Source: an uncultured Alphaproteobacteria bacterium (GTDB lineage Bacteria > Pseudomonadota > Alphaproteobacteria > ATCC43930 > CGMCC-115725). Taken from it: a stretch of DNA of 64,000 bases. Below the pieces are notes generated by a model. It ran no database searches and had not been told where the DNA came from. It saw only the letters and a list, made by a program, of their open reading frames with translations. Within the stretch, counting starts at the first letter, position 1; every line of letters starts with the position of its first letter. The stretch is taken from contig CAWJTR010000001.1 in NCBI GenBank assembly GCA_963845735.1, positions 241,919 to 305,918 on the forward strand, in the 5' to 3' direction. Made by a program: the position numbers and the translations under genes. Shown in pieces: positions 22,573 through 27,061 of the stretch.

Positions 22573-23721
22573 ATGGCGCGCGACGGTTTCAGGATCTTCA
22601 ACTCCGACACCCATGTCGGCCCGGACGCGCGCATTCTTGCCGGCTATCTGAGCCAAGCCGAAAAGGACCGGCTGCGAGACTGGGACGCGTACAAGTCCCA
22701 GGGCCGCTCCGGCCAGGTGACCTACACCAAGGGCCAGCGTCGCTATCGCCGCCGGCTAGGGATGGCCGAACCCGACCAAGCGCCGAGCGGATACATGGCC
22801 GGCTTCACCGGCGTGAAGCGGTCGCGCGAACCCTCGCCGCTGGTCGATGCCGACCCCGGAGAGCGCATCAAGGACATGGATCATGAGGGCGTCGATGTAA
22901 ACCTGACCTTGCCCTCGGGCTGGTTCGGCACCTGGACGGCCGGCGACGATGTGATCCTCGAAATGGCGATGTACCGCGCCTATCACCGCTGGATGGCAGA
23001 CTATTGCGGCGCCTACCCGAACCGGCTCGGCGGGGTGATCCTGGCCGCGGCGCGCGATATCGAGGGAGCGCTCGGCGAGATCCGCCGCTGGGGTCAAGCC
23101 GCTTGGGCCTGGGGGATAATGGTCTACGCCCCGGTTGGCATGCCGCTCGACCACCCGGCGCTGGAGCCGCTCTACGCCAAAGCCGCCGAACTCGACCTTG
23201 CCGTCGTGCTTCACACCTTCACGGTGATGCCGCCTTATGCGCCGGGCGGACAGGATACCTGGGACAATCTGTGGCTGCAGCGCTCGGCCGCCCACCCCTG
23301 GTGCGGCATGCGCAATATGGCGGCGATGATCGGCAGCGGGGTGATGGACCGCTACCCGACCTTGCGGGTGGGCACATTGGAGGCCGGGCACGGCTGGCTG
23401 CCGTTCTGGATGGCGCGGCTCGACGAGCACGCCGAGACGATCAAAGCGGCACTCCCCCAACTCGATCACAAGCCGAGCGAATACGTCACCGGCGGGCGCT
23501 ATTTCCAGAGCATCGAGATCCCGGAGGGCGCCAGGCTGACCAACGCCGTCATCGATCTGGTCGGCGATCACGTGCTGATGTACGCGTCGGACTATCCCCA
23601 CGGCGAAAGCCACTTTCCCGAGTCGGTCTCGCTGGTGGCGGACTGGGCGATGGACACGGAGCGAAAGCGGAAGCTGCTGTGGGACAATGCCACCCGCTTC
23701 TACGCACGCGCTTCAGTCTGA
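22573..23721 (+). CDS. Amidohydrolase-2 (ACMSD-like, metal-dependent TIM-barrel hydrolase) family protein
   Basis: FNSDTHVGP near the N-terminus, YASDYPHGESHFPES near the C-terminus, 382 aa. Confidence 0.75.
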   Translation: MARDGFRIFNSDTHVGPDARILAGYLSQAEKDRLRDWDAYKSQGRSGQVTYTKGQRRYRRRLGMAEPDQAPSGYMAGFTGVKRSREPSPLVDADPGERIKDMDHEGVDVNLTLPSGWFGTWTAGDDVILEMAMYRAYHRWMADYCGAYPNRLGGVILAAARDIEGALGEIRRWGQAAWAWGIMVYAPVGMPLDHPALEPLYAKAAELDLAVVLHTFTVMPPYAPGGQDTWDNLWLQRSAAHPWCGMRNMAAMIGSGVMDRYPTLRVGTLEAGHGWLPFWMARLDEHAETIKAALPQLDHKPSEYVTGGRYFQSIEIPEGARLTNAVIDLVGDHVLMYASDYPHGESHFPESVSLVADWAMDTERKRKLLWDNATRFYARASV

Positions 23722-24047
23722 CCCCGACTATCCATCAGATTTATCAGGAACCGCCGATCCAATTATCGGGAACGTCGCGGTCGGCTTTCCTCGGCTCTAC
23801 GCCGCCGACGGGAAGGCCCTGAGCCCCAGCCGACGAGGGACAGCGCCCCAAACCGCCGCTTCTCCGACACGCCCGGGAAATCCCCGGCGATAATTGCCAG
23901 TCACATTTTACGATGACGGGAAAACGGGGACGCGTCGGCTGTCCTTTTTGTTCGGCTCTCACTCTGCTTTCGATAGCGCAAATTCGGAAATATCCTGCAG
24001 AACCTTTTTTATCTCGTCAGGTATTTCATCGACTTTCATTGCTTCCA

Positions 24048-24611
24048 CTATTGATGCTGCGAAGTTACCGAACCACCATATTCACTTTGTAAATATTGAT
24101 TGAACATGCTTACGGCTTCTTTTCCGGGGATCACATTTAGTCTTTCACCTACATCATCCCAACAAGCTTCCAATTCGTTCAAGGCGGCTTCAGCTACAGT
24201 GGCCTGAGATAGTTTAGGGGAATTCATGCGCTCAAATCGCCCGCGCTCTGCCACATACTGCCCGCTTACATAACTTTTCTTAACATGGGCAAAGTCATCA
24301 AGCAATGTAACTACATCGCCACAATAGGCCGTATCAACTCCAGTTCTTTTCGCTTGATCGGCCACTCTGCGCGCTGCCGCCCGATCCATTGCTGCCGGAA
24401 CCAGCAGGAAATTCTCGATCTCCTTGCGTTTGTGTATGGACACATAGTCACAAAACGTCTGACACTCTGACCTAATTGCCTCACGTTCCCGATCGCACCG
24501 ATAATCCTTGTCCATTAACGCTGCGCCCGCGATTTGTCCGCCTAGGGTGATTTCCATTCCTCTCTTCAAGTTCCTAATCCGTTCGGGGTTAAACCCCCTC
24601 ACAGGAATCAC
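24048..24611 (-). CDS. C-terminal TOPRIM/DUF4435-like nuclease portion (AriB/OLD-like). It is in frame with the upstream ATPase ORF and separated from it by a single TGA.
   Basis: AALMDKDYRCD (DxD-type acidic motif) and KRKEIENFLLVP (the ENYLL-like motif of DUF4435). GTG 24611 is 4 codons after TGA 24624-24626, in the same frame. Confidence 0.6.
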   Translation of the reverse strand: MIPVRGFNPERIRNLKRGMEITLGGQIAGAALMDKDYRCDREREAIRSECQTFCDYVSIHKRKEIENFLLVPAAMDRAAARRVADQAKRTGVDTAYCGDVVTLLDDFAHVKKSYVSGQYVAERGRFERMNSPKLSQATVAEAALNELEACWDDVGERLNVIPGKEAVSMFNQYLQSEYGGSVTSQHQ

Positions 24612-24623
24612 CGCGAAGTCGCT

Positions 24624-25748
24624 TCAATTCGCGACATTAGTTAATCCAAGCTTTCGCGCGAATCGGGAGAGTATTTGGAAATCGTCGCCTTCGACAAACA
24701 ACGCTCTTCGCGTCTTGGCGAGCTGAGTTAAAATCGGATTGAGGTTTGATCCTAGAGCGGTAAATACATCACCCAGTTCTGATGGATCTCTAATTCGGCG
24801 GCCGCTTCTCCGTCGCTTGTTAACGAGGATGATGTCGTCCGTTTCCGCTTCGGTGATAATCTCCGTCGAGTGCGTCGCGATAAGAATGTCTGGCCCCAAA
24901 TCTCTCAAGAGTCCGAGCAATTGGCGTTGGAGATCGGAATGTAGGTATATATCTGGCTCATCGATCAAAAATAGCGCCGTGTCGTTCGATTGGATCAGGT
25001 GCGTCAGCATTTGGCACCAGACCTGAAATCCAAACCCTGACCAAAAAATTTCACGGGGTATCCGCTCCTCGGGGCAAAACATGTGGAGGAGTGGTTTGTC
25101 GTCAATCCGATCCACCCGTGGACGTTCTATGTCCATCCCAGGCCACGTTCGAAGCAATGCCGTCCGAAATGCGTCGAATTTTTCTGGATAGTGATACCAT
25201 ATATTACGGAAATTACGAGATGCCGTGTAATTAAAAAGCGCAAGCCGCGCAGCTTCTTTATCGTATAACCTCTCATTGTGCTCGACTGGGCCAAGAATCG
25301 GTACGAAACCAATAGAACAATTGAATTGTAGCTTGAAGATGCCCGGGGTGGCTATTGATCTGCCTTGAGCGTCAGGAATTAAATAACACGATCCTTGTTC
25401 TGGGAAATATAGTAATAGCTCGTTGCCGTTAGAGAGTGTGAACCTTATTGTAGCTACCTCTGAATCGTCATAGTTATAGAAGATATTTTCCTCTGCAATC
25501 GAGATTGTGCGTAGATCAATGATATGCCCAAGAGTTCTCCCTTGGGGCCCTCTAATGATTTCGGCCCTGCGACTTGTCGCCTTTCGCATCGCAGCAGCCA
25601 GGATGCGAAACGCCGCCAATATTGTAGACTTACCGGAATTATTCGGACCGACCAGAATATTAAAGTGACGGAGATGTAGGGAAAACGTCTCGAAGACTTT
25701 AAATATTGTAAAGTCGACACGAACGAACTGATGATGAGTGTTGGCCAT
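24624..25748 (-). CDS. ABC/SMC-type (AAA_15/21-like) ATPase of OLD / PARIS-AriA type. It ends 21 codons after the start of a TOPRIM-like domain.
   Basis: Walker A GPNNSGKST (aa 34-42), signature-like WSGFGFQ, Walker B LFLIDEPD (aa 259-266), H-loop ATHS. Then ALFVEGDDFQIL (TOPRIM Glu motif) before the TGA. Confidence 0.75.
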   Translation of the reverse strand: MANTHHQFVRVDFTIFKVFETFSLHLRHFNILVGPNNSGKSTILAAFRILAAAMRKATSRRAEIIRGPQGRTLGHIIDLRTISIAEENIFYNYDDSEVATIRFTLSNGNELLLYFPEQGSCYLIPDAQGRSIATPGIFKLQFNCSIGFVPILGPVEHNERLYDKEAARLALFNYTASRNFRNIWYHYPEKFDAFRTALLRTWPGMDIERPRVDRIDDKPLLHMFCPEERIPREIFWSGFGFQVWCQMLTHLIQSNDTALFLIDEPDIYLHSDLQRQLLGLLRDLGPDILIATHSTEIITEAETDDIILVNKRRRSGRRIRDPSELGDVFTALGSNLNPILTQLAKTRRALFVEGDDFQILSRFARKLGLTNVAN

Positions 25749-25793
25749 GTGTGTGCGGGTCAGAACGAGCCCGAAAACCTGTTTCGACGCAAC

Positions 25794-25802
25794 ATTATAT
25801 CA
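25794..25802 (-). promoter_or_regulatory. Extended -10 element TGATATAAT upstream of the islet ATPase gene
   Basis: The minus strand reads TGATATAAT about 46 nt upstream of ATG 25748. The -35 region is weak (TTCCCC). Confidence 0.3.
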
Positions 25803-25993
25803 TCGAAGCGAGCGTGGGGAAAAGCGCATCGCATTTCGACCGTCACCGGATGAGGTTCAATCACCGTGGCGGCGATCGGGCCGTGCCGGGAAGGGACAAA
25901 CGAACTGTCTCGGGCGCTCACCCTGCGCGACCCGCGGCTTTCTCTCGCTGCGGGTAGCCTCTATCATCCCCCAGCCAACCGGAGGACCCGCCA

Positions 25994-27061
25994 ATGTCTG
26001 CTCATGCCGCTGACGCCACTGCGCCTGCTCAACAAACCAGGTGGCCGAATTATCGGGAGGGCGATTTCGTCATCCGGAATTATGTGTTCCGCAGCGGCGA
26101 GACCTTGCCCGAGCTGAAGCTCCACTACCGCACCCTGGGAACGGCGAAGCGCAACGCCGCGGGCAAGATCGTCAACGGCGTGCTGCTGTTGCAGGGCAAT
26201 ACCGGCACCGGCGCCAATTGGCTGCGCCCGAGCCTCGCCGACGAGCTGTTCGGGCCCGGGCAGCCGCTCGATGCGGCGGAGTACTTCATGATCATGCCGG
26301 ACGCGATCGGGCGCGGCGGATCGAGCAAGCCGTCGGACGGGCTCAAGGGGAAATTTCCCCGCTACCGCTATCATGACATGGTCGAGTCCGGCTATCGGCT
26401 GATCAGCGAAGGCCTCGATGTCGCCCATCTGCGCCTCGTGATCGGCAGCTCGATGGGCGGCATGCATGCCTGGATGTGGGCCGAGATGTACCCCGATTTG
26501 ATGGACGGGGTGGTGCCGATCTCGTGCCAGCCGGTCGAGATCAGCGGCCGCAACTGGCTCGGCCGCCGCGCCCAGGCCGAGGCGATCCGCCACGACCCGG
26601 ACTGGAACAACGGCTTCTACGAGACGAACCCGCGCCACTACATCTACGCCGCGGCCGGGAATTTCGGCACCGAGAGCCCGACCCGGATCCAGGAAATGGC
26701 GCCAACTCTCGCCGCCGCCAACGCGCTCTACGAGCAGCGCCTCGCCCAGGCCGCCAAGGGCGACGCCAACAACTCGCTCTGGGCGATCGAGGCGATCATG
26801 GACTACAACCCCGAGCCCGATCTCGACAAGATCAAGGCCAAGGTGATGCTGATCAACAACGCCGAGGATCACGCCAATCCGCCCGAGCTCGGCACCGTCG
26901 AGCGGGCGATGAAGCGGGTCGCGCACGGCCGCTATGTGCTGATCCCGGCGGGCCCGAACACACACGGGCACTTCAGCCATTTCTACGCCGAGCTGTGGAA
27001 GCCCTATCTGATCGAGTTCATGAAAACCCTTGGCGCCCCGCTGCAGGCGGCGGCCGAATAG
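25994..27061 (+). CDS. Alpha/beta hydrolase, homoserine O-acetyltransferase (MetX)-like family
   Basis: GNTGTGANW, nucleophile elbow GSSMGG, 355 aa. Confidence 0.75.
   Translation: MSAHAADATAPAQQTRWPNYREGDFVIRNYVFRSGETLPELKLHYRTLGTAKRNAAGKIVNGVLLLQGNTGTGANWLRPSLADELFGPGQPLDAAEYFMIMPDAIGRGGSSKPSDGLKGKFPRYRYHDMVESGYRLISEGLDVAHLRLVIGSSMGGMHAWMWAEMYPDLMDGVVPISCQPVEISGRNWLGRRAQAEAIRHDPDWNNGFYETNPRHYIYAAAGNFGTESPTRIQEMAPTLAAANALYEQRLAQAAKGDANNSLWAIEAIMDYNPEPDLDKIKAKVMLINNAEDHANPPELGTVERAMKRVAHGRYVLIPAGPNTHGHFSHFYAELWKPYLIEFMKTLGAPLQAAAE

Follow-up and report, generated by a model that had tools for sequence, protein, structure and literature searches.

A low-GC islet of an alphaproteobacterial genome, probably an acquired single-gene defence cassette with an inactivated OLD-family gene

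The 64-kb stretch of DNA analyzed here (the window, on which all coordinates are based) comes from an uncultured alphaproteobacterium and carries a single islet of low G+C (GC) content. We consider it likely that this islet came in by horizontal transfer as a 1.92-kb defence cassette with a single gene, that it resides in a variable hotspot, and that its gene, which belongs to the OLD family of ABC-ATPase-TOPRIM proteins, is now inactivated. An earlier note on the window, made from the sequence without database searches, had drawn attention to the islet and to a gene of this kind. The present analysis adds a second lesion in the gene, the gene's true length, the extent of the family, precise limits for the cassette and the hotspot; the type of system itself was already known. 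Below, the comparison loci are numbered L001-L008, L086 and L087, homologous proteins carry P-numbers, and residue numbers follow the intact gene of 595 codons.

When scored in 300-bp windows, the GC content of the islet (~23900-25800) is 0.43-0.52, against 0.61-0.70 in the flanks. The two 1-kb bins that fall within the islet have values of 0.485 and 0.502, the lowest other bin in the 64 kb being 0.597. These data bear out the GC drop over ~1.9 kb that had been reported before, and positions 23889-25810 constitute the sole low-GC stretch of the window. The position between an amidohydrolase gene and a MetX-like hydrolase gene was likewise found to be correct, given the Amidohydro_2 and Abhydrolase_1 matches of the flanking genes. 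The limits of the islet could be set by comparison with a wholly different neighbourhood (L086), in which there is a gene 89% identical to P0001, the closest relative of the islet gene. The local alignment between the DNA of the window and that of L086 starts and ends exactly at positions 25810 and 23889, and the transferred unit therefore measures 1,922 bp. The edges originally read from the sequence (23890-25810) match these limits. The cassette as a whole has a GC content of 0.475, versus 0.658 for the whole window, and is made up of 62 bp upstream with the box TGATATAAT, the gene, and 70 bp downstream with a G+C-rich palindrome. Both the box and the terminator-like palindrome are conserved in L001 and L086. 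The box was not listed by a simple promoter scan because a -35 hexamer is absent.

The islet does not have the characteristics of an integrase-borne genomic island. No open reading frame (ORF) for an integrase or recombinase was found in or adjoining it, the whole 64-kb window contains no tRNA gene, no convincing direct or inverted repeats flank the islet (only short ones, at the level of chance, were seen) and no Rfam family matched within it. The earlier note had come to the same view on integrase, tRNA and flanking direct repeats. Moreover, the ends of the cassette, as defined by the comparison of the window with L086, show neither a target-site duplication nor terminal inverted repeats.

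The long reading frames of the islet lie on the minus strand only and comprise an ORF of 374 amino acids (24624..25748), an in-frame TGA and a second ORF (24048..24611); the remaining ORFs all have 95 amino acids or fewer. A minus-strand frame of ~566 codons had been proposed as the only real gene. That there is a single real gene stands, but the length does not, as the frame requires read-through of the TGA and is ended early by a frameshift, and intact relatives count 595 codons. The closest relative, P0001, is an intact protein of 595 amino acids (95% identity) encoded on a 3.7-kb metagenome contig (L001), which is collinear with the window from 22954 to 26535 and has the same two flanking genes. 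The alignment with this contig revealed two lesions, the TGA and a +2-bp frameshift, instead of the one that had been supposed. The TGA takes the place of an arginine (R375) that is invariant among 25 close homologues, and is located 21 residues past the glutamate of the TOPRIM fold, between its first and second strands. The frameshift costs the last ~34 residues of the protein; the shifted frame of the window still reads IVEAMKVDEIPDEIKKVLQDISEFALSKAE, the C-terminus of P0001, up to a stop codon at 23959-23961. When the third copy (L086) is used as an outgroup to the window and L001, both lesions appear confined to the window branch. On that branch, 34 synonymous and 8 non-synonymous codon changes were counted, and on the intact L001 branch 23 and 7, respectively. 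All catalytic residues have been kept in the window copy. Judged from these alignments, the gene is a pseudogene, dead or dying, and considering the intact catalytic residues and the mostly synonymous changes on the window branch, its inactivation is recent. At most, the window could yield an ATPase fragment of 374 amino acids.

Two other explanations of the in-frame stop were rejected. Programmed read-through, or the incorporation of selenocysteine, is contradicted by the plain CGA (Arg) codon of the relatives and by the presence of the second, frameshifting lesion. A split into two proteins, as in AriA and AriB, cannot work because the stop sits inside the TOPRIM fold, between its first two strands.

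The N-terminal domain of the window product was recognized by the Pfam models AAA_21 (1.5e-20) and AAA_15 (9.2e-16), in agreement with the ABC-ATPase call that had been based on sequence motifs. The translation holds all the motifs quoted at that time, including ALFVEGDDFQIL, LMDKDYRCD and KEIENFLLVP. Conserved columns were derived from a diversity set of 62 relatives that are 29-63% identical, which was also used for the full-length scans with PADLOC and Pfam. Across this set the Walker A motif, the SGFGFQ element, the Walker B motif and the histidine of the H-loop are invariant. The conserved columns of the C-terminal part are E353-G-x-D356, G385, D413-R-D415, K442-E443-x-E445-N446, W530 and G542-K543, and the acidic residues among them (E353, D356, D413, D415, E443 and E445) are nearly invariant. 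The C-terminal region has a length of about 245 amino acids, which corrects the ~215 given earlier for the TOPRIM part.

To characterize the C-terminal domain on its own, the domains of 30 relatives were scanned one at a time. The PADLOC models for AriAB matched 23 of them (best 7e-10), those for AriB 13 (best 2e-9) and those for Old two, and none of the 30 was matched by the GajA models. With Pfam, OLD-like_TOPRIM was found in 12 (best 3.4e-6) and DUF4435 in three. In the full-length scans AriAB was matched by all 62 relatives, with partial coverage, and there were family-wide matches to GajA and Old as well; Pfam DUF4435 (PF14491) was found in three of the 62 and not in the window copy. A profile of the family, compared with the PDB, recovered PtuA, GajA and the Thermus OLD protein (E-values of 1e-15 to 1e-17) as well as AriA (2.6e-10). 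On GajA, the alignment starts at Walker B, takes in strand 1 of the TOPRIM and puts E353 on the TOPRIM glutamate column. On the OLD protein of Thermus scotoductus (6p74), it extends over profile positions 252-410, to residue 433, and runs through the DxD region.

The structural predictions point in the same direction. An AlphaFold model that was built with 62 diverse sequences reached a predicted local distance difference test score (pLDDT) of 93.6 and a predicted template modelling score (pTM) of 0.86; it replaced an earlier model, made with 25 close homologues, in which the ATPase was poor (pLDDT 70). The new model has strands at 348-353, 379-383, 407-412 and 435-438 with helices in between (b1-a-b2-a-b3-a-b4), followed by a helical bundle (451-591). 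The glutamate E353 comes after strand 1 and the D413-x-D415 element after strand 3. A TOPRIM core followed by a helical domain is the layout of OLD nucleases (PMC6755086). In a Foldseek search, for which a comparison with known OLD-type structures had been suggested by the earlier note, 6p74 and GajA were among the best full-length matches (E about 1e-13), and the whole-model results were dominated by matches to the ATPase only (PtuA, Rad50). The earlier AlphaFold model matched an AriB chain (8v47_H, E 2.9e-3). The intervals between the acidic residues are 60 and 30-32 in the family, 62 and 34 in AriB (E26/D30/D88/E90/E122; PMC11464382) and 55 and 53 in the OLD protein of Burkholderia pseudomallei (Bp). 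On the basis of these sequence comparisons and models, the protein combines an N-terminal ABC-type ATPase with a divergent C-terminal TOPRIM and a helical domain, and thus has the OLD-family architecture. Two homologues have other domain combinations. P0240 (597 amino acids) has the ATPase module in common (44% identity) and an unrelated C-terminal half (hhalign probability 0.3%), and P0221 (964 amino acids) has only the helical C-terminal domain in common (hhalign probability 97.4%). Together they suggest that effector domains have been swapped on this ATPase.

A search with the read-through product gave 3077 matches, the best of which are intact proteins of 590-605 amino acids. When phmmer was run exhaustively over 1.84 billion representatives, the family amounted to 613 clusters at E<=1e-30 and 50% identity. 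Most members have 575-605 amino acids and can be aligned end to end, down to 30% identity. Members from cultured genomes have been labelled 'ATP-dependent nuclease' by NCBI, and JGI mostly uses EcfA2, a transporter ATPase; the TOPRIM models of Pfam miss most of the family. The gene had been described before as possibly a divergent or undescribed variant. Divergent it is, but a large family that already carries an NCBI label cannot be called undescribed. Members are common in soil Proteobacteria, such as Bradyrhizobium, Nordella and Cupriavidus. The gene stands alone in L001-L005 and in L086, and in Bradyrhizobium, Nordella and two contigs of metagenome-assembled genomes (MAGs) it forms a solitary islet of 44-52% GC within DNA of 60-66% GC. 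More distant members adjoin toxin-antitoxin pairs, a second AAA_21 ATPase, and PRTase-CE, NADAR and PLD-SNF2 genes.

Amidohydrolase relatives were found in 80 genome loci, and only the three closest have products that are 97-98% identical to that of the window. From these loci, the host can be described as a Stellaceae-like soil alphaproteobacterium. Two of the three (L006 and L008) keep the hydrolase gene downstream, and neither has the OLD-like gene. Instead, the junction in L008 (MAG CAVZFB010000062.1) holds a low-GC single-gene islet that encodes a reverse transcriptase of 632 amino acids (L008:7309-9207, plus strand; PADLOC RT_UG13a, a defence reverse transcriptase (DRT) of the UG13 group, 3.8e-194). 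In L006 (MAG CAVVPS010000016.1) there is a low-GC gene of 246 amino acids (L006:7139-7879, minus strand) with a weak match to GH19 (chitinase/lysozyme-like; 1.9e-6), and the hydrolase gene downstream is split into shifted ORFs, which means that it is either decayed or carries indel errors. Since sibling genomes have other cargo at the same place, the junction is, as far as these sequences go, a variable hotspot, one that is thinly sampled in that it rests on four genomes carrying the junction; a metagenome scan with the amidohydrolase returned 80 loci, none of which had the hydrolase junction or the OLD-like gene. The earlier note had named the presence of the same gene at the same locus, with native GC, in all relatives as evidence against an acquired islet. 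The synteny comparison gave the opposite result, and together with the cassette in the unrelated locus it supports the view of an acquired islet that lacks mobility genes. Similarity to L006 breaks off at 23712, within the final codons of the amidohydrolase gene, and picks up again at 25884. For L008 the corresponding breakpoints are 23777 and 26041, the latter within the hydrolase gene. Given that the breakpoints differ between genomes, the cargo has probably been exchanged by recombination in the flanks and not by a site-specific integrase. The situation is similar to that of the defence hotspots known from core genomes, in that one pair of flanking genes encloses, in genomes that are almost identical, three kinds of low-GC cargo (the OLD-like gene, the RT_UG13a DRT and the GH19-like gene). 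It is different in the absence of an integrase, tRNA or repeats, and in the varying breakpoints. The third of the closest loci, L007 (contig CAVTFD010000041.1), breaks off at the 3' end of the amidohydrolase gene, close to the start of the variable segment; strain variation at the hotspot may have interrupted the assembly here.

The classes of OLD-family systems are based on gene context, and stand-alone genes constitute class 1 (PMC10568477). The gene of the islet has this context, as it stands alone between metabolic neighbours in the window. The GajB helicase (UvrD/PcrA/Rep-like) of class 2 is missing beside the gene, both in the window and in eight further contexts. As regards class 3, which is associated with retrons and has a reverse transcriptase and an msr/msd non-coding RNA next to the OLD gene, the islet has neither a reverse transcriptase ORF nor an Rfam match, and the reverse transcriptase of L008 replaces the OLD-like gene rather than accompanying it. 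With the class 1 enzymes (P2 Old, the Thermus scotoductus OLD of PDB entry 6p74 and a class 1 OLD of Vibrio cholerae) the family shares the single gene without a partner, the alignment with 6p74 from Walker B to past the DxD element, the full-length Foldseek match and the OLD-like_TOPRIM matches. It differs from them in an identity of about 16%, in the low number of PADLOC Old matches to the C-terminal domains and in not being found in phage records. The resemblance to GajA of the Gabija system (class 2) resides in the aligned ATPase and first TOPRIM strand, the position of E353 and the full-length Foldseek match, whereas the family genes have no GajB beside them and the C-terminal domain alone gives no GajA match. 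PARIS (AriA plus AriB, or the merged AriAB; class 4) has in common with the family the pairing of an ABC ATPase with a TOPRIM, which in the family leans towards the AriB/DUF4435 type, the AriB-like acidic spacing, the prevalence of AriAB and AriB among the matches of the C-terminal domain and the Foldseek match to 8v47_H. In contrast to PARIS, the family is chromosomal and solitary, its ATPase is shorter, and the coverage and scores of the hidden Markov models are weak. Forms of PARIS that consist of a single polypeptide exist (PMC11464382, PMC9122126). Based on the above, the protein is best filed as an OLD-family single-chain ATPase-TOPRIM protein, its class being left between class 1 and the merged class 4.

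By analogy to P2 Old, Thermus OLD, GajA and PARIS, the ATPase heads of intact members would dimerise on ATP and act as a sensor or gate. A phage cue would then release or activate the TOPRIM site, a putative two-metal site made up of E353/D356, D413/D415 and E443/E445 together with K543 from the helical domain. Once activated, this site would cut nucleic acid and halt the infection, probably at the expense of the host cell. Candidate substrates are DNA, as for OLD proteins of class 1 and 2, and tRNA, as for AriB. An RNA substrate can be argued for because the site is AriB-like, and DNA because of the class-1-like context and the OLD-like matches in Pfam.

Several observations weigh against the interpretation of the islet as a defence cassette with an OLD-family gene. 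The role in defence is argued from homology and gene neighbourhoods, and the gating and the substrate are argued by analogy to the characterised relatives. The C-terminal 260 amino acids of the window copy, when scanned alone against Pfam and PADLOC with E-values up to 10, gave no match, and the identity of this domain was therefore set through the relatives. In consequence, the module resembling TOPRIM/DUF4435 that had been read from the motifs is supported by the domain matches of relatives, the alignment with GajA and OLD and the AlphaFold model, but not by any TOPRIM/DUF4435 model on the window copy alone; the ATPase is matched by Pfam models on the window product itself. A profile of the C-terminal part of the family, compared with all PDB sequences at E-values up to 10, gave only chance matches and did not reach the solved AriB, GajA and OLD proteins. 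The TM-scores of the whole model against OLD and GajA are low (0.30-0.34), for which a different orientation of the domains may be responsible. In addition, none of 50,697 phage records contains a member of the family, and in the plasmid set it was found on two Cupriavidus records only, which are 2.5-2.8 Mb in size. PARIS and P2 Old are typically carried by mobile elements, unlike the family described here. A function outside defence, be it that of a housekeeping OLD-like ATPase (comparable to the archaeal Cran1, with a role in the cell cycle) or that of a selfish, addiction-type gene, would fit a family that is chromosomal and solitary, and some OLD-family ATPases are reported to have non-defence roles (PMC12796447). 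Yet the distribution of the family is patchy, its GC content is persistently foreign, in a sibling genome the site is occupied by a DRT reverse transcriptase instead, elsewhere the family adjoins genes of the defence-island type and the gene was readily lost here by pseudogenisation. We therefore regard a function outside defence as extremely improbable. One might also think of the 1,922-bp unit, which has the same ends at unrelated sites of the chromosome and comes with no recombinase, repeats or target duplication, as a self-sufficient mobile cassette whose own ATPase-TOPRIM enzyme perhaps aids a homing-like insertion. The clade might furthermore, or instead, represent a separate, fifth branch of the OLD nucleases, marked by a compact ATPase, by an active site like that of AriB and by a trigger and substrate of its own. 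We give little credence to this pair of ideas.

It is conceivable, although we think it doubtful, that the gene encodes a fused PARIS in the strict sense (AriAB, class 4). In that case a tRNA nuclease resembling AriB would be held by a sensor resembling AriA, and anti-restriction proteins such as Ocr would set the nuclease free to cut anticodon loops of the tRNA-Lys type. AriAB is indeed the best PADLOC family across the 62 relatives (best E 3.3e-33), the C-terminal domain alone matches AriAB or AriB far more often than Old or GajA, and the acidic residues are spaced as in AriB. The published thresholds for merged profiles are 80 and 20 bits, for one profile each (PMC9122126), and P0001 scores 52 bits on PDLC02981, to which either threshold may apply; for Pfam PF14491 the threshold is 27 bits. 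However, the AriAB match spans 28% of the model (332-526 of 694) with scores far below that of a true member, and DUF4435 was matched by far fewer of the isolated C-terminal domains than OLD-like_TOPRIM. The ATPase is nearer to PtuA, GajA and Thermus OLD than to AriA and has about 330 amino acids, compared to 464 in the solved AriA chains. Furthermore, the family profile does not reach the solved AriB at the sequence level, and the family was not found on phages or satellites. Another question is whether the gene might be intact in the organism, the stop and the +2 bp being errors of sequencing or assembly, so that the locus would encode a working defence nuclease of 595 amino acids. Apart from the lesions every conserved catalytic residue has been retained, and there is no excess of amino-acid changes on the window branch. 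Related long-read MAG assemblies show many 1-bp gaps in core genes relative to the window, which also counts against a true pseudogene, and the shifted ORFs of the neighbouring hydrolase gene in L006 indicate that indel errors do arise in such data. Against this stand the two independent lesions within a single gene, neither flanking gene being damaged in the window. One of the lesions replaces C by T at a CGA codon, which is a classic type of genuine mutation and untypical of indel error, and the 2-bp insertion lies outside any homopolymer and is the only indel in the coding region with respect to the short-read contig L001. An artefact is therefore unlikely in our opinion, and we keep to the reading of an acquired defence cassette with an inactivated gene.

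A review of 2023 described stand-alone OLD-type nucleases as the least understood class, of which P2 Old was at that time the only one shown to defend against a phage (PMC10568477); a class 1 enzyme of Vibrio cholerae has been reported since (PMC12392090). An intact member of the present family is a reasonable candidate to establish whether a single chromosomal OLD-type protein can defend alone, and could show which of the two, tRNA or DNA, is cut by an AriB-like active site that forms part of a single chain. The locus provides a small and clean example of a defence hotspot that swaps single-gene cargo without mobility genes. The window copy, as a recent pseudogene, illustrates the turnover of defence genes and has no further functional importance. 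The positions of all features are listed in Table 1.

Table 1. Features of the islet, its gene and the two flanking genes (window coordinates)
Feature	Position	Strand	Basis and remarks
Single-gene low-GC cassette, 1,922 bp	23889..25810	-	Promoter-like box, gene and palindrome; unit in common with the unrelated locus L086
Pseudogene of a 595-aa (amino acid) single-chain ABC-ATPase-TOPRIM protein, OLD-family-like	23959..25748	-	Translation; 95% identity to intact P0001; DNA collinear with L001 throughout
In-frame TGA, codon 375	24624..24626	-	CGA (Arg) in L001; base-by-base alignment
+2-bp insertion, frameshift near codon 562	24060..24061 (accurate to a few bases)	-	Absent from L001 and L086
ABC/SMC-type ATPase domain, residues 1 to about 335	24744..25748	-	Pfam AAA_21 and AAA_15; family profile versus PDB
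Walker A (GPNNSGKST)	25623-25649	-	Translation
Signature-like SGFGFQ (WSGFGFQ)	25023-25040	-	Translation
Walker B (LFLIDEPD)	24951-24974	-	Translation
H-loop (ATHS)	24867-24878	-	Translation
TOPRIM core, residues 347-450	24399..24710	-	Interrupted by TGA at codon 375; near-invariant residues, AlphaFold topology
TOPRIM acidic residues	E353 (24690-24692), D356, D413-x-D415 (24504-24512), K442-E443-x-E445-N446 (24411-24425)	-	
C-terminal helical domain, residues 451-595	23962..24398	-	Conserved W530 and G542-K543 (K543 at 24120-24122); last part out of frame in the window
Extended -10-like box TGATATAAT	25794..25802	-	46 nt upstream of ATG; consensus match only, read from the sequence
G+C-rich palindrome/hairpin, terminator-like	23926..23946	.	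Directly past the stop codon of the gene; terminator-like site in scan
Left flank, Amidohydro_2 gene	22573..23721	+	Pfam 1.6e-26; core gene, native GC
Right flank, alpha/beta-hydrolase gene ('MetX-like')	25994..27061	+	Abhydrolase_1 1.5e-14

Some minor observations concern the surroundings of the gene in other genomes. In L087, a gene for a small serine recombinase (Resolvase plus HTH_7, 158 amino acids; L087:1126-1602, plus strand) lies 4 bp upstream of P0004, a homologue with 80% identity. An 18-nt piece of the 3' end of this resolvase gene (CGCAGCTACAACGTCAG) was seen by eye upstream of the homologue in L004 as well. The piece could be the trace of an earlier vehicle of the cassette; in the window, tblastn found no resolvase remnant upstream of the cassette. 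In Bradyrhizobium (L002, CP028461) an ORF of 212 amino acids without a Pfam match (L002:9833-10471, plus strand) starts 24 bp past the homologue. Considering its native GC content it is probably outside the cassette, and it was not seen in the other contexts. Finally, the window lacks ~100 bp of intergenic DNA that is present in L001 (L001:2762-2862), immediately past the 3' side of the amidohydrolase gene. This deletion, at 23777/23778, falls exactly where the homology to L008 ends.

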